Notes under the pieces: model-generated
Seen by the model: the letters and a program-made list of their open reading frames with translations, nothing else
Databases searched by the model: none
What the model was told of the DNA's origin: nothing
Assembly: GCA_964438755.1 (NCBI GenBank)
Contig: CAYTLL010000009.1
Location: forward strand, 29,518-93,517
Direction: 5' to 3'
Length of the DNA stretch: 64,000 nucleotides
Source of the DNA: an uncultured Akkermansia sp.
GTDB taxonomy: Bacteria; Verrucomicrobiota; Verrucomicrobiia; Opitutales; Opitutaceae
Made by a program: the position numbers and the translations under genes
Shown: piece by piece, positions 12,838-57,500 of the stretch
Numbering within the stretch: the stretch's first letter is position 1
How the letters are laid out: every line of letters begins with the position of its first letter

Positions 12838-12903
12838 GCGCCCGCGGTTGAACACGCTCCATCCGCGCCCCGTCACGTTCTCCTTCCTTTTCTAAAACAC
12901 CCC

Positions 12904-17393: not shown

Positions 17394-17561
17394 GCCGGCC
17401 TTCTGGCCTGGAGGGCGGTCCTCTGTGGCCGCCGTTCGGCGTTCGCACCTGAAAACGAGCCTCTTCCGCCCTCCGTATCCTCCCCCCGTTTGCGGGCATT
17501 GTGACACGCCCTCGCTCCTCGTAATCTTCGCCTTTTCTCAACTCTTCCGTATCCCGTGACC

Positions 17562-24772: not shown

Positions 24773-25007
24773 GCGTAAGAAGGGGATTGGCCGGCACGGG
24801 GAAGCGACGCGTGCGCGGCACCTTTCCCAGCGGAATAAACCCGCGTTTTCCGACACGCGATTTGAGCCGTTTTTTTCGCGGAGCATACTTCTGCCGGGGC
24901 GCTTGATGGCGAGGCGACGTGTCCGCGGATCACGCCGGGCCCTGCAGCGCCTCCGATGCTTGGCGCAAACCGGGCCGTGCCCGCGTTTTTCCTCATGACC
25001 CCCCGCC

Positions 25008-26177: not shown

Positions 26178-26614
26178 GCTCGCAGGAGGGGCGGGCGTTT
26201 GACAGCGCCCCGTCGCGGCGGCTCCCTCGGGGTAATTCGCGCGAATCGCATTTTTTGAAAGTATCTGTATCCGAAATATAACGACGAATGGAGCGATGGA
26301 GCGCCACTTGTCCGGAGCCGGCCTGGTTCGCGTATTCGCGTGCGCCGATGCGTTTTTCCAGCCGCAACCTAAACCGATTGCCGATGAAAGGTTCCATTGT
26401 CCGACGTAGGCGACGCGCGAATAGCCCGGCTTTTTCGCCTTCCGCGGTCGCTTGCGGCGGTGCGAACCCGGTCGAGATGGATCGTCGTAAGCCGATTCCC
26501 GGCATACGTGTTCTCCTTCGCTCGAATCGGGGTTGTTTTTCCGCTTTTCGGCGGATCGCGCCGAGAAATCGCGTTACTTCCTTGGCCCCATCTTACCCTG
26601 ACCCTCGTTTTTCC

Positions 26615-31162: not shown

Positions 31163-31300
31163 TCCTGGTCGACTTTGTTCGGGAGCGCGGCTCTCGCCCT
31201 CGCTTGCGGCGAGCCGTATCCGAAGAGGTTTTACGTTAAAGGCACAGGCGGGCTGCGCTGGAGTCGCCGTGGGGTAGGGTGTTTCCCGCCCCACCTCCCC

Positions 31301-35836: not shown

Positions 35837-35965
35837 GCTTCGCGAGTTTGGAGCGCGGCGACGAGGCGCCTTCCGGAAAAATCTCCGACGGCGCCTGTCG
35901 TGATTTCCCCGGAAATGGCGCTTCTAGGTTTGGGCGCCGTCTCGCGCCCGCCCTTACCCCCGCCC

Positions 35966-39379: not shown

Positions 39380-41878
39380 TTACTTGGCGCTTTCCACCGA
39401 CCACTCGTAGAGGCCGGCGGAGAAGTTGTCCGCGAGGTCGAGCTCGAGCTTCAGGGCGCGGGCGACGACCGGGGGGAACGTCACTTTCACGGGCTCGGAT
39501 TTGCGGATCGCGTAGGCGGAGACGCCGGGCACGGGCAGCCACTCGCCGGCCTCGTTCTTGTAGAGCAGGCGCCACGCCTTGGGCAGGCGGCACTCGCCCT
39601 GGCCCTCGTCGGAGAACCAGGAGACGGTCGCGCCGCTCACGCGCTCGGGCTTGGCGAACTCGTAGCTCAGCCACTCGGTGCCGCCCTTGTGCGGCCAGAA
39701 ATCGAAGTTGCGCGGGAAGCCGTCGGTGGCGTTTTGCGGCATCTGGCCGTCCTTGACCACGGCGGGGTCCATGCCGCCGCGGGCGAAGGAGACGCCGAGC
39801 TTGGCGGTGGAGGCGATCGTGGGCGGCAAGGGCAGGCGAACCTTGTCCGCCGAACGGGCGAGCCAGACGGCCATCGGCGAGAGGCCGCGGTTGTTCCAGG
39901 CGGCGTAGGGGATGGCTACGAGGCGCGCGGGCGTCTCGGCGAGCGAACCGTCCTCGCGGCGCGAGACGCGTTTCGCGCCGTCGACCTCGAGCGTGGTCAC
40001 GCCGCCGAGCAGCGCGGCCTGGTAAACGGGACGCGTGTCGGCGCCGGCGGGGAGCACGAGACCTTGCAGCGATCCGTCGTTGTCCAGGCCCTCGAAGGTG
40101 TAGACGACCGGGCCGCGCTCGAGCGCGACGAGGCCGGCGACGTCCTTGATCTTGGCGTGACCCGCCACGCGGCGGACGGGCATCGCGAGGTCGAGCTCCA
40201 CGCGGTCGCCTTCGCGCCACTCGCGGCGGACGACGGCGAAGCCGGACTCGAGCGCGGCGGACACGGGCTTGCCGTTGACCTTGAGCGTCCAGGCGGCGGG
40301 GGTCGCGTCCTCGTAGGTGTAGAGATCGCTCGGCACGGGCGCGCCGCGCGTCCAGCCGGGGATGCGCAGGCGCAGGGCGAAGGTGGCGGGCTTTTGCGGG
40401 TTCACCCCGAGGCGGATCGCGCCGTTCCACGGGTAGGCGGTCTCCTGCGTGAGGCGCAGCGTTTGCCCGCCGAGCTCGGCGCGGGCCTCGCCGGCGGCGT
40501 AGAGATTCACGAACAAATCCTGGTCGCGGACGGCGTAGGCGTAGCCGCCGAGCGAGGCGAGGACGCGGAGGACGTTGGGCGGGCAGCAGGCGCAGCCGAA
40601 CCAGGGGGCGCGGCCGGCGTGACCGTGGTTGTTCTTCGTCTTTCCGTCGTATTCGAGCGGGTTGGGGTAGAAGAACCGGTCGCCCGAGAGGGAGACGCCG
40701 CTGAGGAAGCCGTTGTAGAGCGTGCGCTCGAAGACATCCATGTATTTGGCGTCGCCGCTCATGAGGAACATGCGGTGGTTCCAGAAGAGGAAGCCGATGG
40801 CGGCGCAGGTCTCGTTGTAACAGCGGTTGGGTAGCTCGTAATCGTCGCCGTAGGCCTCGCCCGCGGCGCGGGCGCCCACGCCGCCGGTGAGGTGGAGCTT
40901 TTTGCCGACGACGTTGCCCCAGATCGCGTTGATCGCCTCGAGGTAACGCGGGTCGCCCTGGAGGGCGGCGACGTCGGCCATGCCGCTGTAGAGGTAGTTG
41001 GCGCGCACGGCGTGGCCGACGGCCTTGCGCTGATCGACCACGGGGGCGTGGTCCTGGCTGTATTCGCCGCCGCCGTGGCCGCGGGCCTCGAGGAAGAAGC
41101 GCGCGAGCGCGAGCCAGCGTTTGTCGCCGGTTTCCCGATACAGCTTGGCCAGGCCCATCTCGACGACCTCGTGGCCGGGGGCGATGCGCGGCTCGCCGTC
41201 GCCGAAGTCGCGTTGCAGGAGCTCGGCGGTCTTCAGGCAGATGTCGAGAAGGCTGCGGGAGCCGGTGGCCTGCTCGTGGGCGACGCCGGCCTCGTAGAGG
41301 TGGCCGAGGTTGTAGAGCTCGTGGCTGAGGCCCGGATCCTTTTCCCAGCGGTTTTGGCCGATCCACTCGTGCGCGGGCGAGTCGGGGTGCATCGTGCGCC
41401 AGGTGTAGAGATAGCCGTCGGGCTCCTGCGCGGCGGCGACGCGGGCGATGATCGTCTCGAGCTGGGCTTGCAGCTTGGGATCGGGGCGGACGCTGAGGCA
41501 GAAGGCGGCGCCTTCGAGGACCTTGTAGACGTCGGAATCGTCGAAGGGGTATTCGGTGACGGGCTTGTGCTGGGCGCCGGCCTCGCCGGCGGCGCGGCGC
41601 TTGAGGATGTCGGCCGCGAGGTCGAAATTTTGCAGACGCTTCGAGGTCTCGAGCTGGCCGAGGGCGAAGGGCAGGGTGACGCGGTTGTTGGTCTCCTGAC
41701 GGTCATGCCAGAGGCCCTCGGTGAAGCTCACCGCGGTGAAGGGGACGGGCTGGATCGGGTAGTCGGAGCCGGCGGCGAAGGCGGGCGCGGCGGCGAGGGC
41801 GCCGGCCATCGCGGACACGGCGTAGCAGCGCAGCCGGCCGGCGGCGCCGCGAGAGGGCGAAGGGGCGGAAGGGAACAT
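39380..41878 (-). CDS. Beta-L-arabinofuranosidase, GH127, with C-terminal discoidin/CBM-like domain
   Basis: DUF1680/GH127 blocks are YKVLEGAA, GYLYTW, HELYNLGHLYEAGVAH, the E-x-C motif NETCAAIGFLFWN, and the CC motif FGCACCPPNVLR. The C-terminal roughly 130 aa (TEWLSYEFAKPERVSGATVSWF...) are F5/8-like. I preferred the ATG at 41878 (MFPSAPS..., signal-like) over 41932, because the latter would overlap the divergent AraC gene. Confidence 0.9.
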   Translation of the reverse strand: MFPSAPSPSRGAAGRLRCYAVSAMAGALAAAPAFAAGSDYPIQPVPFTAVSFTEGLWHDRQETNNRVTLPFALGQLETSKRLQNFDLAADILKRRAAGEAGAQHKPVTEYPFDDSDVYKVLEGAAFCLSVRPDPKLQAQLETIIARVAAAQEPDGYLYTWRTMHPDSPAHEWIGQNRWEKDPGLSHELYNLGHLYEAGVAHEQATGSRSLLDICLKTAELLQRDFGDGEPRIAPGHEVVEMGLAKLYRETGDKRWLALARFFLEARGHGGGEYSQDHAPVVDQRKAVGHAVRANYLYSGMADVAALQGDPRYLEAINAIWGNVVGKKLHLTGGVGARAAGEAYGDDYELPNRCYNETCAAIGFLFWNHRMFLMSGDAKYMDVFERTLYNGFLSGVSLSGDRFFYPNPLEYDGKTKNNHGHAGRAPWFGCACCPPNVLRVLASLGGYAYAVRDQDLFVNLYAAGEARAELGGQTLRLTQETAYPWNGAIRLGVNPQKPATFALRLRIPGWTRGAPVPSDLYTYEDATPAAWTLKVNGKPVSAALESGFAVVRREWREGDRVELDLAMPVRRVAGHAKIKDVAGLVALERGPVVYTFEGLDNDGSLQGLVLPAGADTRPVYQAALLGGVTTLEVDGAKRVSRREDGSLAETPARLVAIPYAAWNNRGLSPMAVWLARSADKVRLPLPPTIASTAKLGVSFARGGMDPAVVKDGQMPQNATDGFPRNFDFWPHKGGTEWLSYEFAKPERVSGATVSWFSDEGQGECRLPKAWRLLYKNEAGEWLPVPGVSAYAIRKSEPVKVTFPPVVARALKLELDLADNFSAGLYEWSVESAK

Positions 41879-41926
41879 AGTCGCGAGCGTCGGCGCGGAC
41901 GTTTCTCCTTTCAAAAGGACATTGTC

Positions 41927-41937
41927 CGACAAAAAAG
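41927..41937. promoter_or_regulatory. Small palindrome GGACAtTGTCC in the GH127/AraC divergent promoter region
   Basis: Read directly from the sequence. It sits in the 76-bp AT-richer gap between the divergent starts at 41878 and 41955, and it contains the TTGTCCG half-site also seen at 26159-26177. Confidence 0.25.
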
Positions 41938-43527: not shown

Positions 43528-43733
43528 GGGGCGAGAGCGAATCGGGATTTGGCGCGGGTGACGAGCGAAGGATGGCGGTCCGCGGGCGACCGGAATCCGG
43601 CATCGCATCACGCTCGGGGGCGGCGCGCCCGAGATCGTCGGTGGTGGCGGCCTCCTGCCGCCGCGCTCCGGAAACGAGAAAGGGCGGGCGATGGGATATC
43701 GCCCGCCCGCGGAGGAGATTTACCTGAGCGCGG

Positions 43734-46691
43734 TCAATCCACGAGGCGCCATTGCTGGTTGTTGCTGGAGCCGCTGGCCCAGTTTTGCATCGCGGTGCCG
43801 TTCGTGGTGGAGCCGCCGGTGTCGAGGCACTTGCCGTTGGCGCGGTTGATCACCTTGTAGTAGCCGCTGTCGGTGTAGGTGAAGGTCCACTGCTGGTTGT
43901 TGCTGGCGCCGTCGCTCCACTGGCCGATGACGGAGCCGTTGGCGGTGTTGCCGAGCGTGTCGAGGAACTTGCCGCCGGTGACGCACTGGAGCTTGCGGTA
44001 GCCGCCGGCGACGGTGGACACGACCCACTTCTGGTTGGCGCTGGGGCCGCTGTCGTATTGCAGCACCGAGGCGCCGTCGGTGGTGGCGCCGTAGTTGTCG
44101 ACCATCTTGCCGTTGGCGCGATTTTGCAGGCGGAAGGTGCCCGACGGGACGCCGGTGGCGAGTTCGGCTACGGCGGTGGCGGAGAGGGCGGAGTTGTAGA
44201 CGCGGAAGTCGTCGATGCGGCCGTTGAAGAGCGGGTCGGCCCACTGTGATTTGCCGACGTAGTTGAGCATCGGTTTGAAGTCGGAGGGCTTGATCGTGAT
44301 GGCGGTGGAGGTGGCGACCTGGACGCCGTTGACGTAGAGCTGGGCGCTGCCGGTTCCGAGGGTGACGGCGACGTGGACCCACTGGCCGCTGGCGAGGGCG
44401 GAGGCGTTGAGCGTCTGCTCGGCGCCGCCGTTTTTGATCGCGAACCGCAGGCCGGCGCCGGAGGCGGCGGGGGTGAGGAACAGATACTGGTCGGTGCCGG
44501 TGCCGAAGTCGAAGATGCGCTGCCAGGCGGCGCCGCCGTTCCAGTAGACCCAGGCGGCGACGGTGAGCTGGTTGAAGTTCGCGACGTCGCCGGGGAGGTT
44601 CACGTGCCGGGTGGATCCGTCGAAGGCGAAGGCGTTGGCGCCGACGCGCGCGGCGCCGTAGGTGGCGGCGCCGTTGACGGAGGCATGGTTGGCGTTGCCG
44701 GAAACATCGTCGGTGTTGCCGTCGAAGTTGTAGCGCGCGACGAGGGTGGCGGCGCCGCTCGGGGTGGCGGCGACCTGCGCGGAGTAGCCGGAGCGGTTGA
44801 GGGAGCGGTCGGCGGCCTGCACGACGTAGTAGTAGGCGCGGGCCTGGTTGGCGGACTTGTCGGTGAACGTGGTCGTGGTCAGACCGCGCGCCACGAGGGA
44901 CCAGGGGCCGCCGGAGCTGTCGGCGCGGAGGACGTTGTAGCCGGCGAGGTCGGCCTCGGCGTTGGCGTTCCAGGTGAGGCGCACGGAGACCGGGTTGGCG
45001 ACGGCGACGAGGCCGGAGGGCGCGGCGGGCGCGGTGAACTCGATGGCGGAGCCGACGGGGAGGAGGCGCCACTGCTGGTTGAGGCCGGCGTTGGCGGTCC
45101 ACTGGAAGATGTTGGCGCCGTCGGCGGTGGAGCCGTTGTCGACGTCGAGGCATTTGCCGCTCCAACGGTTGCGGATGCGGAACCAGCCGTCGGCGACGTA
45201 TTCGAGGAAGTAGTGCTGGTTGGCGCCGCCGACGGTCCACTGGTTGATGTTGCCGCCGTCGTCGTAGGACCAGTTGTAGAGGTCGGCGCCCTTGCCGGAG
45301 TGGGCGGCGCGGACGGTGAAGTAGCTGTAGTCGCCGCCGGCGCGGGAATCGAGCGGGACGATGTCCCACTGCTGATGGGTGGCGCCGGTGTAGGTCGCCT
45401 GCTGGATATTGGCGCCGTCGGCGGTGCTCGCGGAGGCGACCTCCATGACCTTGCCGCTGTTGCGGTTCACGAGGATGTAGCGGCCGTTGACGACGGGCCG
45501 GACGTCGGCGCCCCAGGTGATGTCGACGACCTTTTCCGAGTTGGGCTGATTGACCTGGTAGCCGTTGCCGCCGGGGACGGTGACGGTGAAATCGCGCTGC
45601 GGGCCCTGGCCGTCGAAGAAGACGTCGCGATCCTTGGACACGAGACGGTAGGTGGTGGTGACGGCCTGGCGTTCGGAGGAGCCGAGAAAGGCCTGCACGG
45701 CGCCGGACGGGGCGCGATAGACGGCGGCGGCGGTCCAGTTGGGACGGTGCTCGGCGTAGGCGAGGCGGACGCCCTGGCAGGCCTGGATGAAGCTGGCGCG
45801 GGCGAGCTCGGCGGTGCCCCACCAGATGCCGGTTTGGAGGCCGTATTCGGCGCCGACGATCACCTCGGCGACGTTGTGGACCTCCTCGTTCATGGCGCGG
45901 TCGCCGCTGGCGAGGACGTTCTGGTAGAAGGCGGCGTAGTTGTCGAAGGAGCCGGCGAGCTGGTGGGTGGTGCCTTCCTGCACGCGGCTTTTGACGACGT
46001 TATACCAAGGGTTGGCCTGGTCGCAATTGAGGGTGCTGGCGCCGGCGAGGGGCACGCCGGAGAAGTCGGCGCTGGTCGCGAGGAGGCCGAGGATGTCGTA
46101 GAGGTTGGTGACGGTGCCCTGGCCGACGGGCGAGGCGGTGTAGTCGGGTTCGTTGAAGGGGGAGGCGGAGACGACGGTCTTGCCCTGGGCGGCGAGGGCG
46201 CGGACCGAGGCCTCCATGTTTTGCACCCAGCGGGAGGGGACGACCTCGGTGGTGCTGCCGTTGCGGAACCAGGCGTCGATGCCGGCGCCGTTGTCGGGGG
46301 TGATGGTGACGGGTTTGCCCGCGCCGGCGAGGTTGGCGAGGTTGACGCGGTTGGTGAGGTCCGCGAGCTGGGTGGCGGCGAGGGCGCCGTTGACGGGGGC
46401 GGCGTTGACCGGGAAGGCCACGCGCACGACGTCGACCTGGTCGGCGCCCATGTAGAGGATGCCGCGGCGCATGTTGTCGTAGCTCGGCCAGGCGGTATCG
46501 AGGCCCCACTCGGTGATGGACTTCGAGATGCCGGCGTCGGCGACGCCGAAAGCGAGGGTGCGATCCTGCGCGAAGGCGGAGGATGCGAGCGCGAGGGCGA
46601 GCGTGGCGCCGAGGGGCGGGCGGGCGCGGCGCTTGGGCGAGGTGGGGCGGAGGCGGGCGGCGCGGGCCGCGGCGGGAGTTGTGCGGGTCAT
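43734..46691 (-). CDS. Secreted multidomain protein: unassigned hydrolase-like N-terminal domain + ricin B + FN3 + LamG + second ricin B (tandem paralog 1)
   Basis: The N-terminus is signal-like (LGATLALALASSAFA). A domain of about 390 aa carries SPFNEPDY and MNEEVHN. Ricin QxW repeats are HQQW, INQW and NQQW. An FN3 module follows (YYYVVQAAD). The LamG module carries AWQRIFDFGTGTDQYLFL and DDFRVYNSAL. The C-terminal ricin has NQKW, IGQW, NQQWTF, MQNW and NQQWRLVD. Confidence 0.85.
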   Translation of the reverse strand: MTRTTPAAARAARLRPTSPKRRARPPLGATLALALASSAFAQDRTLAFGVADAGISKSITEWGLDTAWPSYDNMRRGILYMGADQVDVVRVAFPVNAAPVNGALAATQLADLTNRVNLANLAGAGKPVTITPDNGAGIDAWFRNGSTTEVVPSRWVQNMEASVRALAAQGKTVVSASPFNEPDYTASPVGQGTVTNLYDILGLLATSADFSGVPLAGASTLNCDQANPWYNVVKSRVQEGTTHQLAGSFDNYAAFYQNVLASGDRAMNEEVHNVAEVIVGAEYGLQTGIWWGTAELARASFIQACQGVRLAYAEHRPNWTAAAVYRAPSGAVQAFLGSSERQAVTTTYRLVSKDRDVFFDGQGPQRDFTVTVPGGNGYQVNQPNSEKVVDITWGADVRPVVNGRYILVNRNSGKVMEVASASTADGANIQQATYTGATHQQWDIVPLDSRAGGDYSYFTVRAAHSGKGADLYNWSYDDGGNINQWTVGGANQHYFLEYVADGWFRIRNRWSGKCLDVDNGSTADGANIFQWTANAGLNQQWRLLPVGSAIEFTAPAAPSGLVAVANPVSVRLTWNANAEADLAGYNVLRADSSGGPWSLVARGLTTTTFTDKSANQARAYYYVVQAADRSLNRSGYSAQVAATPSGAATLVARYNFDGNTDDVSGNANHASVNGAATYGAARVGANAFAFDGSTRHVNLPGDVANFNQLTVAAWVYWNGGAAWQRIFDFGTGTDQYLFLTPAASGAGLRFAIKNGGAEQTLNASALASGQWVHVAVTLGTGSAQLYVNGVQVATSTAITIKPSDFKPMLNYVGKSQWADPLFNGRIDDFRVYNSALSATAVAELATGVPSGTFRLQNRANGKMVDNYGATTDGASVLQYDSGPSANQKWVVSTVAGGYRKLQCVTGGKFLDTLGNTANGSVIGQWSDGASNNQQWTFTYTDSGYYKVINRANGKCLDTGGSTTNGTAMQNWASGSSNNQQWRLVD

Positions 46692-46947
46692 TTTGTTTTT
46701 GGGGTTGGGAATCGCCCGTCGAGGCGCAGGGGATCGTCGGCGCGGGCAAAGGGTAGGCTGCGCCCTTGGCGGCGGCTCGTGCCGGCCGGGCGGAGGGGTA
46801 AGGGTGGGGGCGAGCCGCTCTCGGGGACGGTGAGGAAGCGGAGCCAATGATACGAACGCGGTCTCGCGGCCGCGCGCGCCACGGGCGCGCGTCTTTACGC
46901 TTTTTGCATGAATCCCCGCCCCGCGTGCCCCGAGGCGAAGGCGTCGC

Positions 46948-49900
46948 TCAGCGCTGGATCACCACGCGGTAGAAGGCGCGCGGGCCGGGCGGCATCGGAG
47001 GCAGCGTGAGCAGGAGATCGGCACCGGTGCCGGCTTGCGCGGCGCCTATATTGGTCCACGGCGCGAGAAGATCGGCGGTGAATTGCGCCTGGTAAACATG
47101 ACCGCGCACGGACGCGGGGATGGTGAGCGTGGCGGTCGAGCTTTGGTCGGCGGCGACGGCGAGCGCGAGTTTCACCGCGGCGGTCTCTTCGTTGGTGATG
47201 AGGGCGGATTGCGGCGTGGCGGAGACGGCGGAGGAAACCGGGCCGGTGCCGGCGAGCGTGGTGGCGTCGACGGTGTAGGTGTAGGTCTGGCCGTAAGCGA
47301 GCGAGGCGTGGGTGAAGGCGGTGTTCGCGGAACCGGAGGAAAGGATCGAGTAGGGGCCTCCGCCGGAGGTGGCGCAGCGGAGGGTGTAGCCGGTGGCGTT
47401 GGCTACGGCGTTCCACGCGAGCTGGATCTGGAGCGGGCCCGGGGTGGCGGCGAGGCCGGAGGGGGCGGGCGGGAGGCCGGCGGCGAGCGCGGAGATCTCG
47501 CCGGAGGCGAGGGCGTAATTGTAGACGCGGAACTCGTCGACGAGCCCGTTGAGGCCGGGGTCGCCGTCGAATTGGCTGTCGCCGACGTAGTTCAGGACGG
47601 GGTTGAAATCCGAGGGCTTGATCGTGAAGGCGGAGGAGGCGGCGACCTGCGCGCCGTCGACGTAGAGGCGGGCCTCGGCGCCGGCGAGCGTGACGGCGAC
47701 ATGGACCCAGCGGCCGATCGAGAGGGCGGGGGCGTTGAGCTGCTGTTCGGCGCCGCCGTTCTTGATCGCGAAGCGGAGGCCGGCGCCGGAGGCGGCGGGG
47801 GTGAGGAAAAGGTATTGGTCGGTGCCGTTGCCGAAGTCGAAGACGCGCTGCCAGGACGCGCCGCCGTTCCAGAAAACCCAGGCTGCGACGGTGAGCCGGT
47901 CGTGCCGGGCGACGCCGGGAGGCAGGTTGGCGTGTTTGCCGGTGCCATCGAGGATTAGGGCGGCGGAGCCGACGCGGCCGGCGCCGTAGGCGGCGGTGTC
48001 GGAGAGCTCGGCGTGGTTGGCGTTTTCGGAGGCGTCGCGGGCGTCGCCTTCGAAGGCGTAGAGGGCTACGAGGGTCGGCGCGCCGGTGGGCGTGGCGGAG
48101 GCCGCGGGGGCGGGGGCGGAGCGGTTGAGGGAGCGGTCGGCGGCGAGGACGCGGTAGTAGTAGGTGCGGCCGGGCTTGGCGGACTCGTCGACGTAGGTGG
48201 TGGCGGAGACGTCGCGAGCGATCGTCTCGTAGCCGGTCGCGGAATTTTCCGAGCGAAAGACGGCGTAGCCGGCGAGGTCGGCGGCGGCGCTGGCGTTCCA
48301 GGAGAGGCGCACGGACACGGCGGCGGCGGTGGCGACGAGGCCGGTGGGGGCGGGGGGCGCGACGAATTCGACGGAGGCGTCGGCGGGGAGGAGGCGCCAC
48401 TGCTGGTTGAAGCCGCCGTTGCCGGACCACTGGGCGATGTTGGCGCCGTCGGCGGTGGAGGCGCCCGCGACCTCGAGGTATTTTCCGCTCCAGCGGTTGC
48501 GGATCTGGAACCAGCCGTTTCCGGCGTATTCAAAAAACCAGCACTGGTTGGCGCCGACGCCGGCGGGCCACTGGTGGACGTTGCCGCCGTCGTCGTAGGA
48601 CCAGTTGAGGAGGTCCGCGCCCTTGCCGGAATGCGCGGCGCGGACGGTGAAGTAGCTGTAGTCGCCGCCGGTGCGGGAATCTAGCGGCGCGACGTCCCAC
48701 TGCTGGTAGGTCGAGCCGTTGTAGGATCCCTGGCGGATGTTGGCGCCGTCGGCGGTGCCGCCGGAGGCGACCTCCATGACCTTGCCGCTGGCGCGGTTGA
48801 CGAGGATGTAGCGGCCGTTGATCGCGGGCTGCACGTCGACGCCCCAGGCGATGTTGACCACCTTCTCGGCGTTGGGCTGGTTCGCGCCGTAGCCGGTGCC
48901 TCCGGGGATGACGACGGTGTGGTCGTGACGAGGGCCCTGGCCGTCGTAGAAGACCTTCCGGTCGCGGTTGAAGAAGCGGTAGCGGGTGGTCGTGGCCTGG
49001 CGTTCGGAGGCGCCGACGAAGGCCTGGACGTTGCCGGCGGGCGCGCGGTAGACGGCGGCGGCGGTCCAGAAGGGGCGGTGCTCGGCGTAGCCGAGGCGCA
49101 CGCCCTGGCAGGCTTTGACGAAGCTGGCGCGGGCGAGCTCGGCGGAGGCCCACCAGGTGCCGCTTTGCACGCCGTATTCGGCGCCGACGATGGCCTCGAC
49201 GACATTGTGCAGCTCCTCGTTCACGGCCTTGTCGCCGTTGGCGCGCACGGACTGGTAGAAGGCGGCGTAGGCGTCGAAACCGCCGGCGAGCTGGTGGGTG
49301 GTGCCTTCGCCGACGCGGGCGTTGATGGCGTTATACCAGGTCGCGGCGGAGTCGCAGTTGAGCGTGCTGCCGCCGGCGAAGGCGACGCCGGCGAAGTCGG
49401 CGTGGGTCTGAAGCAGGCCGAGGATGTCGTAGAGGTTGGCGAGGGTGCCCTGGTTCCAGCCGTAGTCGGGCTCGTTGAAGGGCGAGGCGACGGCGATGGT
49501 CCTGCCCTGCGCCTTGAAGGCGCGGGCGGCGGCGGCCATGGTCTCGACCCAGCGGGAGGGGACGACCTCGGAGCCGTTCTTGAACCACGCGTCGACGCCG
49601 GCGCCGGTGTCGGCGGTCATGGCGAGGGGCTTGTTCGCGCCGGCGAGATTGGCGAGGCCGACGCGATAGGCGACGTCGGCGAGCTGGGCGGTGGTGAGCT
49701 GGCCGTTCACCACGGGCGCGTTCATCGGGAAGGTGACGCGGACGAGGTCGACCTGGTCGGCGCCCATGTAGATGACGCCGCGGCGCATGTTGTCGTAGCT
49801 GGGCCAGGCGGTATCCAGGCCCCATTCGGTGATCGCCTTGGAAACACCCGCGTCGGTGGTGCCGAAGAGCACGGTGCGGTCCTGGGCCGAGGCGCGGTCG

Positions 49901-49995
49901 CCTCCGGTCGCGGCCAGAAGGGCGAGGGGCAGGGCGCAGGCGCGAAAAGCGGCGCGACGCAGGTGGCGGGAAAAAGGGAGGCTGAAACGGGGCAT
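46948..49995 (-). CDS. Secreted multidomain protein: unassigned hydrolase-like N-terminal domain + ricin B + FN3 + LamG + FN3 + C-terminal module (tandem paralog 2)
   Basis: Over roughly the first 800 aa it is collinear with 43734-46691 (SPFNEPDY, VNEELHN, ricin QxW repeats, YYYRVLAAD, SWQRVFDFGNGTDQYLFL, DEFRVYNYAL). It then diverges into an FN3 module and a tail ending in FYRVVIQR. Confidence 0.85.
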   Translation of the reverse strand: MPRFSLPFSRHLRRAAFRACALPLALLAATGGDRASAQDRTVLFGTTDAGVSKAITEWGLDTAWPSYDNMRRGVIYMGADQVDLVRVTFPMNAPVVNGQLTTAQLADVAYRVGLANLAGANKPLAMTADTGAGVDAWFKNGSEVVPSRWVETMAAAARAFKAQGRTIAVASPFNEPDYGWNQGTLANLYDILGLLQTHADFAGVAFAGGSTLNCDSAATWYNAINARVGEGTTHQLAGGFDAYAAFYQSVRANGDKAVNEELHNVVEAIVGAEYGVQSGTWWASAELARASFVKACQGVRLGYAEHRPFWTAAAVYRAPAGNVQAFVGASERQATTTRYRFFNRDRKVFYDGQGPRHDHTVVIPGGTGYGANQPNAEKVVNIAWGVDVQPAINGRYILVNRASGKVMEVASGGTADGANIRQGSYNGSTYQQWDVAPLDSRTGGDYSYFTVRAAHSGKGADLLNWSYDDGGNVHQWPAGVGANQCWFFEYAGNGWFQIRNRWSGKYLEVAGASTADGANIAQWSGNGGFNQQWRLLPADASVEFVAPPAPTGLVATAAAVSVRLSWNASAAADLAGYAVFRSENSATGYETIARDVSATTYVDESAKPGRTYYYRVLAADRSLNRSAPAPAASATPTGAPTLVALYAFEGDARDASENANHAELSDTAAYGAGRVGSAALILDGTGKHANLPPGVARHDRLTVAAWVFWNGGASWQRVFDFGNGTDQYLFLTPAASGAGLRFAIKNGGAEQQLNAPALSIGRWVHVAVTLAGAEARLYVDGAQVAASSAFTIKPSDFNPVLNYVGDSQFDGDPGLNGLVDEFRVYNYALASGEISALAAGLPPAPSGLAATPGPLQIQLAWNAVANATGYTLRCATSGGGPYSILSSGSANTAFTHASLAYGQTYTYTVDATTLAGTGPVSSAVSATPQSALITNEETAAVKLALAVAADQSSTATLTIPASVRGHVYQAQFTADLLAPWTNIGAAQAGTGADLLLTLPPMPPGPRAFYRVVIQR

Positions 49996-50162: not shown

Positions 50163-51404
50163 TCAGCTGGCTTTCGCGAGCGGGTAGAGGGCGGAGGCCG
50201 CCGCGCGAGGCGAGGGGGCGGGCCAGGGCGGCTTGCCGGCTCCGCGCCGGGTGTCGGGCTGCGCGGTCGCGACTTGTTCGCCGCCGGCTTCGGGCCGGGC
50301 GACAACGCGCGAAGGCGGCGCGGAAGCGGGGCGAGGGGCGGTCTTTCGCTCGTCGACGGGGAGGGATACTTTGACGGAAGGGGACGCGGGGCCTTCGCCG
50401 CCGGCGTTCATGGCGGTGACGACGCACTCGAGCGGGTGTTCGCAGGCGGAAAGGGGAAGGCTGAAGCGGGTGGTCTGAAGCGCCGAGGCGAGATCTTCGG
50501 GCGCGGCGCCGGGGCCGGTCACGCGCTTGAGGCGGTAGATCGCGCTGGAACAGGGGGCCTGCCAGGTGAAGACGACGTGGGCGCCGTCGATCGTCGCGGA
50601 AAATCCCTTGGGCGCGAGCGGGCGGGACGGCGGGGGCGGGGGCGTCAGGCGGAGCTCCGCGCCGCGGTAGTCGGCCTCGACGTCGGGGCGGGCGGGGCGG
50701 TGGAGGCCGACGCCGCGGCCCGGGCGCACGACCACGATGTCGAAGCGCCGGGAGAGGGCCGGGCCCGCGGGGCGTCCGGCGGGAGGGCGGATGCGAAGCG
50801 CGCCGGCGCGGTCGTCCCAGGAAAAGGAGACGGGACCGGCGGGATCCCGGAGCGTGAATTCGCCATCGGCGCCGGGGTAGACGCGTATTTCCAAGGGCGC
50901 GGCGGAGTCGCCGGCTTGTTCGGGGAGGCTGGCGAGGGGGATGATCGAGCCGGCTTTCACGAAGGCCGGGATGATTTCCAGCGGGACCGGGGTCTGGAGG
51001 GTGTCGCCGCCGGCGTAGGAGGCGCCCGACCAGAAATCGATCCATGCGGCGCCGGGGGGGAGCGCGAGGCGCAGCAGGTGGGTTTCGGCGGCGGGAGGGG
51101 GCTGCACCCAGAAGGCGGGGCCGAAGGTCAGGGCGTGAAGGTGTTCCCCCGAGCGCAGGTAGTCGTTGAGCGTGGCGGGGGCGCCGCGGGCGGCGGCGTC
51201 TTTTTTGGAAAGGGGAAGCGCCTCGTCGGTGGAGTCGACGTAGGGGGCGAGGCGACGGCGCAGACGGATGAAGTCGACCAGCACCTTCTGGGACGGGGCG
51301 GGACCGTTCCACGGCGTGTTTTCGCCCTCCGCGATGAGATGCATGCGGAAGCCCGGGGTGAAGACCTGGGATTGGAACCAACGGGTGAAAAGGGGCGAGG
51401 CCAT
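50163..51404 (-). pseudogene. 5'-truncated GH31 remnant (only the end of the barrel, the C-terminal beta-sandwich domains and an FN3-like tail)
   Basis: The ORF begins at LFTRWFQSQVFTPGFRMH...TPW, which corresponds to the late barrel segment of GH31 enzymes. It continues through FGPAFWVQP, IIPAFVKAGSIIP and LEIRVYPGADGEFTL (distal GH31 domains). Only 126 bp separate it from the upstream kinase stop, so the N-terminal and catalytic aspartate regions are absent. Confidence 0.55.
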
Positions 51405-51530: not shown

Positions 51531-53735
51531 CTAGCGGGTTCGGAGCGGCGCCCGCGGGGCGGGGATCTGGTCGCGGCGGTCGAGCATGCCGGCGGCTTCG
51601 CGCACGAGGATGCGGGCGTTGATCCAGTCGAACCAAAGGATCTGGGTGGCGGGTTCCCAGGGCTCGAGCGCGCTCCGGAAACGCTCGTCCAGGCGCGCGC
51701 GGTCTTCCTCGACCAGTCGCGCGGCCTCGTCGTGCCGGCCGAGCTGGGCGTAGGACATGGCCATGACCATGCGGGCGGAGATCTCGCGGGGGAGGTTGGG
51801 GTTTTGGTAGGACAGGCAGCGTTTGCTCCAGCGGATCGCGCCTTCGAGATCGCCGCGGCGCTGAGCGAGGAGGCCGAGCGCGAAGGAGCGCCACGCGTCG
51901 AGGTAAGGGTCGGCGCTGGCCTGGCGGTCGGCGCCCTCGAAGGTGGTGAGCACGACGTCCGCGAGGGGGGCGAGCGAGTCGAGAAACTCCGGGGGGGCCG
52001 GGGTCAGCAGGCTGGCTTTCAGGACCTGCTCGGCGGGCATCGGGTTGGTGGTGCGCGCGAAGCGGGCGACGGCGTTGCGTCGGAACGCGTCGTATTGAGC
52101 GTCGTCGCCGTTCTCGCAGATCGCGGAGGCGGCGGGCATGAGGCTGAAGGACACCTTGTCGGAGTCGGAGGGGTCGACGCGGGTGATGACGAGGGAGAGG
52201 GCGAAGTGGCGTTTGGCCGACTCGGCCCAACGGCCGCCGATGGCGTGCCATTCGCCGAGGGCGCGGAGCACCTGCGCGCATTCCAGCGAGGGGCGGAAGA
52301 GGCCGTCGTCGATCTGGGCGACGAGGGCGTCGGCCTCGGCGATCCGGCCGTAGGTCAGGAACACGGCGGCCTGCGCGATCTTTTCGCCGGCCTCCGCCTG
52401 GGCGAGGAGCCGGGTCTGCTCGCGGCGGGCGATGCGCTCGCGGTGGAGCAGCCAGGTCGAGAGGCCCAGGCCGGCGAGGAGCGTGACCAGGACGAGCGCG
52501 CCGGCGACGAAGACCACGCGGTTGCGCCGGACGAGCTTTTCAAAGCGGTAAAGGCGGCTGGGCGGGCGCGCGGCGACGAGCTCGTTCGCGAGATAACGGC
52601 GGATGTCCATCGCGAGGCCGTAGGCGGTCTCGTAGCGCCTGCGCCGGTCTTTTTCCAGCGCGGTGGCGATGATCCAGTCGAGGTCGCCGCGGACGGCGGC
52701 GATGAGGCGCGAGGGGTCGGCGCGCTGCTGCCGGGCGATCGCGAGAAGGTCTCCCGGCGGGAGGGCGGCGAGGACCGCGGAAGGGCGGGGGACCTCGCGT
52801 TCGCAGATGATGCGGCGCATGCTTTCCAGGCCGCCGGCCTCGAGTTCCTTGGAGTCGAAGGGGGTGCGGCCGGTGAGGAGTTCGTGCAGGAGCACGCCGA
52901 GGCTGTAGATGTCGCCGCGGGTATCGAGGTCGGGGTTGCCGAGATCGGCCTGCTCGGGGCTCATGTAGGCCGGCGTGCCGATGAGGTGCAGCTGGAAGGT
53001 GAGCCCGGGCTCGCCGTGGCGGCCCTCGACGGCCTTGGCGATGCCGAAGTCGATGATCTTCGGCATGGGCTGGCCGTCCTGCGTGGTGACAAGGATGTTG
53101 GACGGCTTGATGTCGCGGTGGATGATGCCCTTCTGGTGGGCGTGCTGGAGGGCGTGGCAGACGCGGATGAAGAGTCGCAGCCGCTCCTCGGTGGTGAGGA
53201 AATGTTGCGCGCAGTAGTCGGTGATTTTGATGCCGTGCACCAACTCCATCACGAAGTAGGGCCGCCCGGAGTCCGTCGTGCCGGCGTCGAGCACGCGGGC
53301 GATGTTCGGGTGGTCCATGATGGCGAGCGCCTGCCGCTCGCGCTCGAAACGCGTGATGACGCTCTCGGTGTCCATGCCGAGGCGGATGACCTTGAGCGCC
53401 ACCTGCCGGCGAACCGGTTCCTCCTGCTCGGCGAGGTAGACCACGCCGCAGCCGCCGGTGCCGAGTTTGCGGAGGATCTTGTAGCGCCCGATCTTCGCTA
53501 CGCCCCGTCCGCCGCGGTCGCCGGAATAGGATTCGAACTCGTCGGCGCTGCCGGTGGGCAGGGGGCTCAGGAGGGTCTCCGCCGGTTCCTGCAACGCGAG
53601 CAGTTCCTCGAGCCGCCGGCGCATCGTGGCGTCGTCCTGGCAGTGGTGGTCCAGGAAGGCGCGTCGCTCGGTCTCGCCGGCGAGCCCGACCAGTTCCTCG
53701 AAGAGGAGCCGTTCCCGTTTGCGCGCCTCGGTCAT
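51531..53735 (-). CDS. Membrane Ser/Thr protein kinase with extracytoplasmic helical-repeat (TPR-like) domain (module 2)
   Basis: Kinase motifs are LGTGGCGVVYLA, VALKVI, HRDIKPSNIL, IDFGIAK and GTPAYMSPE. The TM helix is VFVAGALVLVTLLAGLGLSTWLL. The C-terminal roughly 300 aa are collinear with the module 1 kinase and include the terminal WFDWIN. I set the start at MTEARK (ATG at 53735), which overlaps the sigma stop as ATGA. Confidence 0.9.
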   Translation of the reverse strand: MTEARKRERLLFEELVGLAGETERRAFLDHHCQDDATMRRRLEELLALQEPAETLLSPLPTGSADEFESYSGDRGGRGVAKIGRYKILRKLGTGGCGVVYLAEQEEPVRRQVALKVIRLGMDTESVITRFERERQALAIMDHPNIARVLDAGTTDSGRPYFVMELVHGIKITDYCAQHFLTTEERLRLFIRVCHALQHAHQKGIIHRDIKPSNILVTTQDGQPMPKIIDFGIAKAVEGRHGEPGLTFQLHLIGTPAYMSPEQADLGNPDLDTRGDIYSLGVLLHELLTGRTPFDSKELEAGGLESMRRIICEREVPRPSAVLAALPPGDLLAIARQQRADPSRLIAAVRGDLDWIIATALEKDRRRRYETAYGLAMDIRRYLANELVAARPPSRLYRFEKLVRRNRVVFVAGALVLVTLLAGLGLSTWLLHRERIARREQTRLLAQAEAGEKIAQAAVFLTYGRIAEADALVAQIDDGLFRPSLECAQVLRALGEWHAIGGRWAESAKRHFALSLVITRVDPSDSDKVSFSLMPAASAICENGDDAQYDAFRRNAVARFARTTNPMPAEQVLKASLLTPAPPEFLDSLAPLADVVLTTFEGADRQASADPYLDAWRSFALGLLAQRRGDLEGAIRWSKRCLSYQNPNLPREISARMVMAMSYAQLGRHDEAARLVEEDRARLDERFRSALEPWEPATQILWFDWINARILVREAAGMLDRRDQIPAPRAPLRTR

Positions 53736-54331
53736 TTGCGCGGTGGCGTCGCGCCCTTTTCGGGCGGATTCGCGCCCGGATCCTGGCGGACGAGCCGGTA
53801 AAGGGAGGCGCGGGCGTAGGCCCACTGGCGATTGAGGGTGCGTTCGCTGACGCCGAGGATTTCGGCGATCTCCTCGTTGGTGAAGCCGCCGAAGAACTTG
53901 TAGGTCACGAGACGCGCGCTCTCGGGGTCCTCGGCCTCGAGCCGGGTGAGGGCTTCGTTGACCAGAAGCACCCGCTCGTCGGGCTGCGGGCTGCTGAGAT
54001 TAAGGTCGGCGATGTCGACCGGCTCCATCATGCGGCCGCGTTTGCGCGTGGCCTTTTTGCGCGCGAGGTCGACGAGGATGTGGCGCATCGCCAGGGCGGC
54101 GGCGCGAAAGAAGTGCTGGCGATCGTTCCAGTTGCGCTCGCCTTGGTGGGCGAGGCGAAGCCAGGCCTCGTGGACGAGGGCGGTGGGTTGCAGGGTGACG
54201 GGCCCGTCCTCGCGTCGCAGGCGCCGGGCGGCGAGCCGGCGCAATTCGTCGTAAACGAGCGGCAGCAACTTTTCCGGAGCTCCGGGATCCCCTTGTTCCG
54301 CGGCGCGCAGGAGTTGGGTGATCTCGCTCAT
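53732..54331 (-). CDS. ECF sigma factor, TIGR02999 / Sigma70_ECF type (module 2)
   Basis: The N-terminus is MSEITQLLRAAEQGDPGAPEKLLPLVYDELRRLAARRLRREDGPVTLQPTALVHEAWLRL. Region 4 is FFGGFTNEEIAEILGVSERTLNRQWAYARASL. Confidence 0.9.
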   Translation of the reverse strand: MSEITQLLRAAEQGDPGAPEKLLPLVYDELRRLAARRLRREDGPVTLQPTALVHEAWLRLAHQGERNWNDRQHFFRAAALAMRHILVDLARKKATRKRGRMMEPVDIADLNLSSPQPDERVLLVNEALTRLEAEDPESARLVTYKFFGGFTNEEIAEILGVSERTLNRQWAYARASLYRLVRQDPGANPPEKGATPPRK

Positions 54332-54574: not shown

Positions 54575-57500
54575 ATGTTCCGGCGCCCCTTCCTCGTCCG
54601 CGCGGCTTCGCTTTGCGTAGTCGCCTGCCTTCCCTCCGCAAACGCCGCCCTGACCCAGCGTTGGTCCTTCAATTCCGCTTCCGGCTCGGCCGCGAACGGG
54701 ACCGCGCTCTCCGACTCGGTGGGCGGCATGACGGCGACGGTCCGCGGCGTGGGCGCCACGTTCAACGGTTCCGCCCTCGTCCTGCCCGGCACGACCACGG
54801 GCAACGTCACCCCGGCGACCATCTCCGCCTACCTGGACCTCCCCAACGGCGTCCTTTCGAGCCGGGAAAACGTCTCCATCGAGCTCTGGGTCACGCCCGT
54901 GGCCTCGCTCAATTTCCAGCGGATCTTCGATTTCGGCGCCTCCAGCGCCGGCGACGGCCTCGGCGCCGCGGGCGAGTGGACCGGCGGCGGCACGGTCGCC
55001 CCCAACAACGTCACCGCCTCCGACGAGTTCGGCCTCACCACCAACGTCGGGACGAACATCAACACCCAGCGCTTGTATGGCCGCCTCAACTACGACCAGG
55101 CCGGCGCGCTCAATCTCTACGCGGACAGCGCGCTGACCACCACGCTCGGCCAGCGCTACCACTACGTCGTCACCTACGCCAAGGGCGTCGGCGCTTACGC
55201 CGCGACCGGCGGCGGCCAGCAGAAATGGTATCGCGACGGCGCCCTCGTCGCCACGTTGGACCTGCCCTACGCGCTTTCGACGATCAACGACGTCAACAAC
55301 TGGATCGGCCGCTCCCAGTTCTCCGCCGACCCGCTCTCGCGCATCAACATCGACGAGCTCCGGCTCTACGACCACGCCCTCGGCGCGACGGAGGTCTCCG
55401 CCAATCGCGACGGCGGCCCCGACCAGATCGTCACGCCTCCCGCGCCGGTTCCCGCGCCGACGCCCAACCACCTCTGGACGTTCAACGTCCAGGCCGATTC
55501 CACCGTCGATTCCGGGCTCGTCTTCACCGATTCCGTCGGCGGCATGGCCGCCACCGTGCGCGGCAACGGGGCCACGCTCACCGGCACCGCGCTTCGCCTC
55601 CCGGGCACGACCGACGGCAACCAGACCGCCGCCTCGATCTCCGCCTATCTCGACCTGCCGAACGGCATCATCTCCGCGCGCTCCGCCATCACCTTCGAGG
55701 CCTGGGCCACCCCGCGCTCGTCCAAGAACTGGCAGCGCCTCTTCGACTTCGGCCGCTGCGCGACCACGTCGGGCGCCGGCGCGGCGACGGGCGAGATCGT
55801 CGACGGCCCCGCCATCCCCGGGGCCACCGCCGGCTACGACAACCTCGGCCTCACCCTTAACACCGGCACCAACCTCAACAGCCAGCAGCTCGAGGGCCAA
55901 TACGACGGCAACGCTCCTGTCTACTCCAGCACCACCGCCGCCACCACGGCCGGCACCGAGTATCACTACGTTTTCGTCATCGAGGACGGCGTCGGCACCT
56001 ACGGCGCCACCGGTTGCCGCGCCCGCTGGTATCGCAACGGCGTCCTCCAGAACTCCATGGATTTCGCCTTCCTCTCGGGCGACATGGAGGATGTGAACAA
56101 CTGGATCGGCCGCTCGCTGTATACCGGTGACTCCAACTCCAACTTGGATCTGAACGAGCTGCGGATCTACAACCGCGCCATCACGCCCGCCGAGGTCCTC
56201 GCCAGCTACACCGCCGGCGCCGATCCGGCCTCGGGACCGCCCGAACCGCTCCCTCCCGCCCCGCTCCCGGTCAATCGCTGGTCGTTTGACAACGCCTCCG
56301 GCGCCGCCGCTTCCGGCACCGCGCTCGTCGACAGTTCCGGTCGCGAGACGCTCACCGTCCGCGGCGTCGGCGCGACGTTCAACGGTTCGTCCGTCGTCCT
56401 TCCCGGCACCACCAACGGCAACCAGACCGCCGCCGCCATCTCCGCCTACCTCGACCTCCGCAACGGTTTCGTGTCGTCCCGCTCCAGCCTCACCTTCGAG
56501 GCCTGGGTCACGCCGGTCTCCTCGAAGAACTGGCAGCGCCTCTTCGATTTCGGCAACTGCTCGATCACCAGCGGCACCGGTGCGGCCGCGGGCGAGATCG
56601 TCGACGGCGCCGCCGCCCCCGGGGGCTTTGTCGCCAACGACAACCTCTTCCTCTCCCTGAACGTCGGCACCGTTCTCGGCAGCCACCGTCTCGCCGCCAA
56701 GGTCGACGGCGGCACCGAGACCGGCCTCAACACCGACCTCTCCTCCATCACCGTCGCCGGCACCGAATACCACTACGTCCTCACCGTGGAGGACGGCGCG
56801 GGCGTCTACGGCGCCGCCGGCTGCCGTGTCCGCTGGTTCCGCAACGGCGAGCAGCAGGGCTCCGCCGATCTTTCCTATCGCCTCGCCGACCTCAGCGACG
56901 CGAACAACTGGATCGGCCGCTCCAACTGGGCCGCCGACAACAACTCCAACCTCTCGCTCAACGAGCTCCGCGTCTATGATCGCGCCATCTCGCCCGCCGA
57001 GGTGATCAGTAGCTACCAGGCCGGCCCGTCCGTCGTTTTCCCCGCGCCCACGCTCGTCGCCGACTCCGCGACCATCCAGCCGGGGCAAAAGGTCCTGCTC
57101 GACGTCCTCGCCAACGATTCCGGCGGCCCCATCCCGGCCTCCCTGCAAATCGTGTCTCCGCCCCAGGCCGGCACGGCCGTGATCCGCGACGGCAAGATCC
57201 TCTACTCCCACGCCGGCTCCGCCCCCGGACCCGTCACCTTCACCTACCGCGTCGCCAACGTCAGCGGCGCCAGCGCCGACGCTGTCGTGACCATCCGGCT
57301 CGCCGCCGGGCTTCGCATCGACAACCCGGCCATCGCCATGCCCGCCTCGCCGCCGCCGACCTTCTACCAGACGGTCGACGCCATCCCCGGCGTCAGCTTC
57401 AGCGAACCCGTCGCCATCGCCACGCAGCCCGGCGACACCCGCCGCGTCTACGTCTGCGAGCGCATGGCCAAGATCCAGCTCGTCCCCGACATCACCGCCG

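Follow-up and report, generated by a model that had tools for sequence, protein, structure and literature searches.

What do the tandem paralogs A and B, located on the minus strand of a 64,000-nucleotide stretch of contig CAYTLL010000009.1 from an uncultured Akkermansia sp. (the window), encode? An earlier reading of the sequence (the original prediction) had described two large proteins sharing a collinear N-terminal domain of about 390 amino acids (aa) that looked like a glycoside hydrolase (GH) but fitted no recognisable family. Open reading frames (ORFs), Pfam matches and public gene calls defined paralog B (46948..49995, 1015 aa), composed of a signal peptide, the putative catalytic domain, ricin, FN3 and LamG modules, a further FN3 module and a C-terminal tail, and paralog A (43734..46691, 985 aa), composed of a signal peptide, the catalytic domain, ricin, FN3 and LamG modules and a second ricin module. 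All coordinates given for features of A and B refer to the minus strand. The catalytic domain occupied 48841..49884 in B and 45510..46568 in A, close to the limits first proposed for it (about 48830-49880 and 45500-46565), and was 71% identical in amino acids between the two proteins. We consider it probable that A and B are secreted retaining glycanases of clan GH-A that act on arabinose-decorated hemicellulose and whose family is unclassified.

Predicted fold and putative catalytic residues

We modelled the catalytic domain with AlphaFold2 from a 28-sequence alignment; positions are numbered below as in this domain model, in which E141 and E227 are Glu175 and Glu261 of B. The model (pLDDT 92.8, pTM 0.90) contained eight strand-helix units, followed by a beta-rich part at 265-349. 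Assignment with DSSP placed the barrel strands at 23-27 (beta1), 50-56 (beta2), 90-95 (beta3), 133-137 (beta4), 176-179 (beta5), 196-203 (beta6), 222-228 (beta7) and 244-247 (beta8), with one N-terminal strand (6-10) preceding the barrel and the sandwich strands (265-349) coming after it; in full-length B, these elements comprise an N-terminal strand at aa 40-44, a barrel at aa ~57-295 and a beta-sandwich at aa ~299-385. A Foldseek search of the PDB returned 291 matches at E<=1e-3. The first 23 places, and the greater part of the first 50, went to GH30 enzymes (XynC 3kl0, with E 5.7e-15; Xyn30D; fungal GH30_7 enzymes; the glucocerebrosidase GBA; and the beta-1,6-glucanase BT3312), followed by GH79 and GH51, all with a probability of 1.0, a TM-score of about 0.55 and 9-14% identity. 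The model thus predicts the (beta/alpha)8 barrel of clan GH-A, followed by a beta-sandwich resembling that of GH30. In GH30, C-terminal strands and one N-terminal strand together build the sandwich, and the strand at 6-10 may play the latter part here. The resemblance to GH30 and GH59 that had been suspected from the module layout was borne out, as GH30 came first in this search and a GH59 galactocerebrosidase (3zr5, E 1.1e-11) was listed when full-length B was used as the query.

Two glutamates took the positions in the model that the general acid/base and the nucleophile occupy in clan GH-A. N140-E141-P142 directly followed strand beta4, and E227 lay inside strand beta7, at its end. We therefore propose Glu175 of B (codon 49471..49473), in an F-N-E-P-D motif at the C-terminal end of beta4, as the general acid/base, and Glu261 of B (49213..49215), at the C-terminal end of beta7, as the nucleophile; their counterparts in A are Glu181 (46149-46151) and Glu270 (45882-45884). 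The 86 aa between E141 and E227 are a spacing typical of retaining enzymes of clan GH-A. The motifs to which the original prediction had drawn attention, ITEWGLDTAWPSYDNMRRG, SPFNEPDY, MNEEVHN/VNEELHN and AAAVYRAP, were present in both copies, and the model placed the two candidate acids where that prediction had expected them, the N-E-P at strand 4 and a Glu at strand 7. Across all the family sequences that we collected, N140, E141 and D143 were each found in 266 of 266, E227 in 275 of 275, H200 in 273 of 274, H229 in 274 of 275 and W248 in 271 of 273. The residue before E227 is also Glu in A and B, but other family members have Asp or Pro at this position (226), so that only E227 qualifies as the nucleophile. 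Catalysis would follow the classical retaining double displacement, with Glu175 (B)/Glu181 (A) acting as general acid/base and Glu261 (B)/Glu270 (A) as nucleophile, and the invariant His on strand 6 (H234 of B) and Trp on strand 8 (W282 of B) may assist.

The same data bear on whether the barrel is catalytic at all. As every copy of the domain is joined to lectin-type modules, and as its carriers are named hypothetical or RICIN-domain proteins, it might be a lectin-like or inactive module that serves for binding or as a scaffold in large surface proteins. We regard this as very improbable. Pseudo-enzymes normally lose their catalytic constellation, but here the N-E of beta4, the H of beta6, the E of beta7 and the W of beta8 were strictly conserved across a set of over 260 sequences whose identity ranged from 21 to 89%. 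In addition, no other known catalytic domain was fused to any of the 33 atypical long members of the family (0/33), which leaves the A/B-type domain as the sole candidate catalytic module in these proteins.

The side sandwich contained an S-E-R-Q motif (49000-49005 in B, E331-R332; E297-R298 in the model), with Glu in 263 of 264 and Arg in 264 of 264 sequences. This motif was as invariant as the catalytic residues, which is unexpected for a side domain that is usually seen as structural, and we know of no description of it for GH30. A contact of the Glu-Arg pair with the barrel or with the substrate is possible.

Relation to known glycoside hydrolase families

We compared the proteins with the hidden Markov model (HMM) libraries of Pfam (2025) and NCBIfam (2026), and with the sequences of the PDB by phmmer. 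The first ~390 aa of A and B matched no Pfam or NCBIfam model at E<=1, the isolated B domain matched no Pfam model even at E<=10, and the catalytic domain matched no PDB sequence at E<=10. This agreed with the claim that the domain fits no recognisable GH family, the only signals being sub-threshold or partial matches to PF14587 (GH30_2) and PF11790 (Glyco_hydro_cc) in relatives. All weak sequence links to known families (GH39, GBA, PF14587, PF11790 and the window's own Glyco_hydro_cc protein) fell on the beta4 strand that carries the NEP motif; the GH39 link, to a beta-xylosidase, had E 0.11.

These signals allow the domain to be weighed as a very divergent subfamily of GH30, which would leave the mechanism the same and alter only the classification. 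In its favour, GH30 heads the Foldseek list with a probability of 1.0 and likewise pairs a barrel with a beta-sandwich, PF14587 matched 5 of 28 relatives below threshold (best E 8e-4), and a precomputed 'weak' flag was attached to one relative (P0227). However, the window proteins themselves did not match the GH30 models (PF02055, PF14587, PF17189), whether full-length at E<=1 or as the isolated domain at E<=10, and the one relative examined in detail (P0045) reached 16 bits against a cut-off of 27 over about 55 residues, all on the NEP strand. Identity to GH30 structures was 10-14%, and hhalign gave a probability of about 1% against GBA with either a 28- or a 281-sequence alignment, pairing N140-E141 with N234-E235 of GBA and leaving the nucleophile unaligned. 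An equally weak signal pointed toward a different family, as PF11790 was matched by 2 of the 28 relatives, one of which (P0039) scored 24.4 bits against a cut-off of 21 over profile positions 47-161, about half of the profile; this match was also limited to the NEP strand. We therefore consider membership of GH30 unlikely. The best structural match, the GH30_8 glucuronoxylanases (XynC, 3kl0/3gtn; Xyn30D, 4qaw), resembles A and B in the predicted combination of a barrel with a beta-sandwich, which in these enzymes is tightly attached, and in the Glu residues at strands 4 and 7, but A and B were only 12-14% identical to these enzymes at a TM-score of ~0.55, and they differ in a more compact barrel (~240 aa), the invariant S-E-R-Q motif and other accessory modules.

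Several other assignments were tried and rejected. Glyco_hydro_cc proteins share the F-N-E-P-D motif of strand 4 with the A/B family, but PF11790, which we take to correspond to GH128 of CAZy, did not match the window domains and matched the relative P0039 only partially, and hhalign against the PF11790 family of the window itself gave 2% probability over 35 columns, on the NEP strand only. PF11790 enzymes are not known to have a side beta-sandwich. For GH59, there was no match to PF02057 and the structural likeness was of low TM-score only; the galactocerebrosidase 3zr5 resembles A and B in its barrel, beta-sandwich and lectin layout, but was 9-10% identical and differs in the fold and order of the lectin. 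PF00150, the model of GH5 (including GH5_34 and GH5_11), was not matched at E<=10 by any of the 28 members. The clostridial xylanases placed in GH30_10 to GH30_12 in the literature are presumably ordinary GH30 enzymes. GH159 is a five-bladed beta-propeller (PMC9278983), whereas the A/B domain is a TIM barrel in the model. ATIYA1 and OsAPSE, two plant enzymes with ricin-B, belong to GH5_11 and GH27, respectively, and not to the A/B family. The neighbouring 1,624-aa protein (26288-31162) was considered as a possible third copy of the domain, but showed no similarity to it in BLASTP.

No description of the A/B catalytic domain was found in the searchable literature, and a survey paper on CBM13 (carbohydrate-binding module family 13), which mentions neither GH30 nor LamG, gave no lead on the A/B architecture. 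The domain therefore lies outside GH30, GH128, GH59 and GH5 by its sequence, and inside clan GH-A by its predicted fold. It probably stands for a GH family that is still unclassified, and the suggestion of an undescribed family holds as far as Pfam, NCBIfam, the PDB and the searchable literature are concerned; the models of CAZy and dbCAN lay outside this comparison, and CAZy may already list the clade.

Accessory modules, neighbouring genes and substrate

Both proteins begin with a signal peptide that ends just ahead of a conserved Q-D-R-T. In B it comprises 49885..49995 (MPRFS...GGDRASA, with cleavage before QDRT), as read from the sequence; residues 1-37 had low pLDDT, and homologues aligned only from QDRT on. 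Behind the catalytic domain, B contained a ricin-type, CBM13-like beta-trefoil (48385..48822; PF14200, 5.8e-29; PF00652, 4e-10; Foldseek matches to ThreeFoil and MOA with TM-scores of 0.46-0.95), a first FN3 module (48091..48354; PF00041; beta-strands at 551-634 in the model), a LamG_3 jelly-roll (47470..48078; PF13385, 1.7e-27) and a second FN3 module that is absent from A (47206..47463; a second fn3 stretch in Pfam, with an internal match to the first). In A, the order was a first ricin module (45066..45494, by Pfam), an FN3 module with a weak Pfam match (44763..45023; 0.033) that nevertheless aligned to the first FN3 module of B, a LamG_3 module (44148..44750; PF13385, 1.8e-31) and a C-terminal second ricin module that is absent from B (43737..44138; PF00652, aa 904-1033 of the listed ORF). 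Pfam thus recovered the ricin B, FN3 and LamG modules that had been proposed for both proteins, and also their swapped C-termini, with the second ricin module ending A and the second fn3 lying near the end of B. With E-values for PF14200/PF00652 of 1.5e-59 (A) and 5.8e-29 (B), and Foldseek TM-scores of up to 0.95 for the trefoil, the ricin modules can be assigned to the CBM13/ricin-B beta-trefoils by both HMM and predicted fold.

The 85-aa tail that ends B (46951..47205, terminating in ...PRAFYRVVIQR) matched no Pfam or NCBIfam model and no known sorting domain, had an AlphaFold2 confidence below 50, and found no homologues in the alignment used for modelling, although it is kept in two close relatives of the locus (86% in L001 and 63% in L003). 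A similar ending, [ST]xDLxxW ... (R)xF[YFLM]R[LV]xxxx, was shared by the B tail and three further large secreted proteins encoded in the window (26288-31162, 31175-35836 and 54575-59968, all on the plus strand), and was matched by no Pfam or NCBIfam model. The tail described earlier as sorting-like thus resembles no known sorting domain but has this common terminal motif, which may mark a C-terminal domain, specific to the lineage, for sorting or anchoring; the B tail is possibly a retention or sorting module. The different C-termini, an extra lectin in A and in B an FN3 module with a tail common to other secreted proteins, might provide different localisation or additional binding and avidity.

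In the model of full-length B, pLDDT was above 90 for aa 38-844 and pTM was 0.78, with about 170 C-terminal residues unmodelled, suggesting that the modules of B have a defined arrangement relative to each other. The best Foldseek match of this model was the arabinoxylanase CtXyl5A (GH5_34-CBM6-CBM13-Fn3-CBM62, PDB 5g56; E 9.4e-23 over 737 columns), which follows a parallel order of barrel, beta-sandwich, CBM13 trefoil, Fn3 and a further binding module. This likeness is architectural only, as the A/B domain does not match PF00150 and the last module is LamG and not CBM62; furthermore, the global TM-score was 0.19-0.26, so the relative orientations of the domains differ.

The same cassette recurred across the family. 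Searching by indexed words gave 52 relatives. When 1.84 billion cluster representatives (50% identity) were searched exhaustively with a profile, 443 matched at E<=1e-3 and 219 of these at E<=1e-30; scanning one genome per species yielded 388 loci, 80 of which we fetched. The family occurred in Bacteroidota, Verrucomicrobiota, Gammaproteobacteria, Planctomycetota, Armatimonadota and others, and the closest relatives of A and B, at 85-89% identity, were from Verrucomicrobiota metagenome-assembled genomes (MAGs). All nine full-length homologues examined (from Bacteroidota, Gammaproteobacteria and Verrucomicrobiota) carried the catalytic domain, ricin, (FN3) and LamG_3, to which the homologues from Bacteroidota add a sorting tail of the type IX secretion system (T9SS). 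Even among the 33 atypical long members, ricin was present in 26 and LamG_3 in 22. A subclade of ~700-aa proteins from uncultured Bacteroidales (L083-L091; clusters of 248, 188 and 95 members) lacked LamG; its members are among the most often sampled of the family, with one such subclade recorded on hundreds of contigs, and the sample labels read as rumen or gut studies. A and B are predicted to be enzymes of a conventional kind, GH30-like and of clan GH-A, in a sequence family outside the coverage of Pfam, NCBIfam and the PDB; the family is widely distributed and keeps its four-module architecture. If activity were confirmed, this would add a widespread GH family (~443 clusters at 50% identity, 388 genomic loci) and possibly a new activity for deconstructing decorated hemicelluloses. 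Its members were named in their sources only as 'hypothetical' or 'RICIN domain-containing', with one exception (P0222), so CAZyme (carbohydrate-active enzyme) inventories of plant-biomass degradation would miss them. As the expected fold and mechanism are conventional, the gain would lie in enzyme cataloguing and substrate specificity and not in new biology.

The LamG module gave the first indication of a substrate. It was homologous to domain 4 of AbnA, the GH43 arabinanase of Geobacillus stearothermophilus (PDB 5hon; phmmer E 1.2e-7, Foldseek TM-score 0.88, 22% identity), a domain that was crystallised with bound arabinopentaose and has a Kd of 8-11 uM for arabinan (PMC9110388). The likeness covers the accessory module only, as AbnA carries this domain on an inverting GH43 propeller, and A and B carry it on a clan GH-A barrel. 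The window is also rich in arabinose- and galactose-active genes, encoding two GH127 proteins (10300-12837 and 39380-41932), two GH51 proteins (12904-14820 and 35900-38416), a GH27 protein with an NPCBM domain (17556-19367) and two GH43 proteins (22324-23781 and 23810-25126). Where family genes elsewhere lay in same-strand clusters, GH43, GH51 and GH2 were direct neighbours, and a GH43, GH51, GH127 or GH27 gene was found within 10 kb of the family gene in 14 of 50 long loci (~28%). A functional analogue for activity on arabinogalactan is Arabidopsis ATIYA1, a GH5_11 enzyme with ricin-B that acts as an endo-beta-1,6-galactanase on arabinogalactan protein (PMC12751061). It resembles A and B in having a clan GH-A barrel followed by ricin-B and an arabinose- and galactose-rich plant glycan as its target, but it is eukaryotic, belongs to GH5 by sequence, and has neither FN3 nor LamG. 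The arabinoglycan substrate named in the original prediction is plausible from the LamG homology and from the GH43, GH51 and GH127 neighbours, but the linkage to alpha-xylosidases described below points partly elsewhere.

In the mechanism that we propose, the ricin (CBM13-type) and LamG (AbnA-domain-4-type) modules, spaced by FN3 and fixed relative to each other, would direct the enzyme onto decorated plant hemicellulose, most probably one with alpha-L-arabinofuranosyl side chains such as arabinoxylan, arabinoxyloglucan, or arabinan/arabinogalactan. The neighbouring exo-enzymes, of GH43, GH51, GH127, GH27 and, ancestrally, GH31, would subsequently trim what is released. Alternatively, A and B could themselves be exo-acting alpha-L-arabinofuranosidases, functional analogues of GH51, in line with the arabinose-rich context, with the presence of GH51 (also of clan GH-A) among the Foldseek matches, and with the name of P0222, 'extracellular exo-alpha-L-arabinofuranosidase'. 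We find this quite unlikely, as that name is automated and was most likely transferred via the ricin/CBM13 module, and as several GH43 and GH51 arabinofuranosidases are already encoded nearby. An endo-glycanase agrees better with the T9SS secretion of the relatives, with the multiple CBMs and with the likeness to XynC and CtXyl5A, both of them endo-enzymes.

Xyloglucan is the other candidate substrate. In the ~700-aa Bacteroidales subclade, the family gene, an AraC-type regulator (carrying a faint Reg_prop signal) and a GH31 gene always occurred together, in five separate clusters with differing flanks, and the GH31 proteins resembled xyloglucan alpha-xylosidases (CjXyl31A, 3e-148; BoGH31A, 1e-141). 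In the window, the upstream neighbour of the pair (50163..51404, minus strand, 413 aa) is a truncated GH31 of the same alpha-xylosidase type, of which only the C-terminal part is present: it covered Pfam profile positions 273-325 of 328 only, aligned to aa 509-775 of the full-length GH31 of the subclade, and had alpha-xylosidases as its best PDB matches (7kmp, 8.5e-22; 2xvg). What remains is the end of the barrel and the C-domain, without the catalytic part and without a signal peptide. The same truncated ORF was kept in L001 (64% aa identity) and in L003 (49%), suggesting an old remnant that stays open. A and B might thus be xyloglucan-specific, as an endo-xyloglucanase or an oligoxyloglucan hydrolase working with GH31, in which case the arabinose-related neighbours would reflect arabinoxyloglucan or coincidence. 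The GH2, GH43 and GH3 neighbours found at the loci would be consistent with this, and resemble the known xyloglucan loci (Bacteroides ovatus XyGUL). We hold specificity for xyloglucan to be possible but doubtful: only 3 of the 50 long loci had a GH31 gene inside 10 kb, and these came from those two lineages; what the window keeps of GH31 is a remnant lacking the catalytic residues; no xyloglucan-specific partners accompany the typical 930-aa T9SS forms; and the GH31-linked subclade lacks LamG and may have diverged in function.

Several observations weigh against arabinose-decorated hemicellulose as the substrate, or against the enzyme assignment itself. The strongest conserved linkage, that of the family gene with AraC and GH31, points to xyloglucan and not to arabinan or arabinogalactan. 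Roughly half of the loci lacked carbohydrate-active neighbours, and about half of the neighbours in 20 diverse loci were unrelated housekeeping genes; the remainder included GH43 (7 of 54 neighbours), GH51, GH2 and hybrid two-component regulators, and no partner gene was conserved throughout these 20 loci. As GH43 genes abound in polysaccharide degraders, chance alone would place some of them near the family gene. The 22% identity of LamG to AbnA domain 4 is low, so its ligand specificity may differ, and the TM-scores to GH30 were only about 0.55. The substrate theme common to these hints is decorated hemicellulose, with independent indications toward arabinofuranosylated glycans and toward xyloglucan. 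More tentatively, the domain may found a new clan GH-A family with an unassigned specificity, such as internal cleavage of a hemicellulose rich in arabinosyl substituents (arabinoxyloglucan, or a glycan of the arabinogalactan protein/extensin type) that resists known enzymes; the Glu-Arg pair of S-E-R-Q and the rigid ricin-FN3-LamG unit would then form part of an extended surface for recognising the substrate, in place of CBMs on loose tethers.

The gene pair and other features of the window

The longest ORF of A is 43734..46847, and the public gene call begins at the internal M53, giving 43734..46691 and 985 aa; the call for B was identical in two independent public metagenome assemblies, and the sequence of the A/B locus was present in freshwater metagenomes. 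The A and B proteins were 68% identical over 813 aa (BLASTP), and their DNA was 79.1% identical over 2464 nucleotides (blastn), ranging from 62 to 85% across 100-codon windows. The 80-85% DNA identity reported earlier was therefore slightly generous overall, but fair for the best stretches. GC content at third codon positions was 0.92-0.93 in both ORFs, within surrounding DNA of 69% GC, indicating that A and B are real genes. A terminator-like hairpin (43682..43708, minus strand; an 11-bp stem with 9 GC pairs and a T-rich tail) directly followed the stop codon of A, and no comparable hairpin was found in the 256-nucleotide spacer between B and A, suggesting that the two genes probably form one operon transcribed from B to A. 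RNA evidence for the locus consisted of two soil metatranscriptomes containing 5% of the words and was uninformative.

Two copies of the family gene were found in only 3 of the 80 fetched loci, those of the three closest MAGs (L001, L002 and L003). In each of these MAGs the flanking genes were the same and enclosed a single A-type and a single B-type gene, indicating that the duplication is older than these lineages. The order of the copies differed, however. In the window it was GH31 remnant, B, A and a small ORF, and the same order of B before A was present in two independent public assemblies; in L001 and L003 the GH31 remnant was followed by the A-type and then the B-type gene. L001 keeps the downstream small ORF, L003 has ~4 kb inserted between the two copies, and the short contig of L002 showed only the order of A-type before B-type. 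At the DNA level (L001 region 6623-12941), A of the window corresponded to the first position in L001 (88.7%) and B to the second (85.4%). Unequal crossing-over through an A-B-A-B intermediate is a possible origin of this permuted order.

The window also encodes a protein with Glyco_hydro_cc (PF11790) and LamG (31175-35836, plus strand), located ~10 kb from the pair. Proteins of this kind stood next to the family gene in L066 (12683-15445), L074 (5580-7013) and L063 (12833-14113), and in L066 a LamG-rich giant protein adjoined the family gene as well, as in the window. The PF11790 proteins of the window and of these three loci, which represent Bacteroidota and Verrucomicrobiota, were 38-53% identical over ~450 aa, and the PF11790 protein with LamG may be a functional partner of the family enzyme.

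Three further features were observed among the genes of the locus, which also include an AraC regulator and an astacin. The ORF at 16320-17393 (plus strand, 357 aa) had a marginal GH32N/propeller match (E 1.4e-4), and in 7 of 80 loci a homologue of it lay close to the family gene; its product is probably a GH43-like enzyme with a five-bladed propeller. The ~340 N-terminal residues (26288-27322, plus strand) of the 1,624-aa neighbour, which further contains ricin, two F5/8-type-C, two LamG and one fn3 module, were unrelated to the A/B domain and had no Pfam, NCBIfam or PDB match, making this the second unassigned N-terminal domain at the same locus. Finally, two Ser/Thr kinases with C-terminal extensions lay amid the CAZyme genes, one of them overlapping an ORF that resembles a sigma factor of the extracytoplasmic function (ECF) type (19373-21592, 51531-53825 and 53732-54331, all on the minus strand), an arrangement that looks like sigma/kinase regulation of a glycan-degradation locus.

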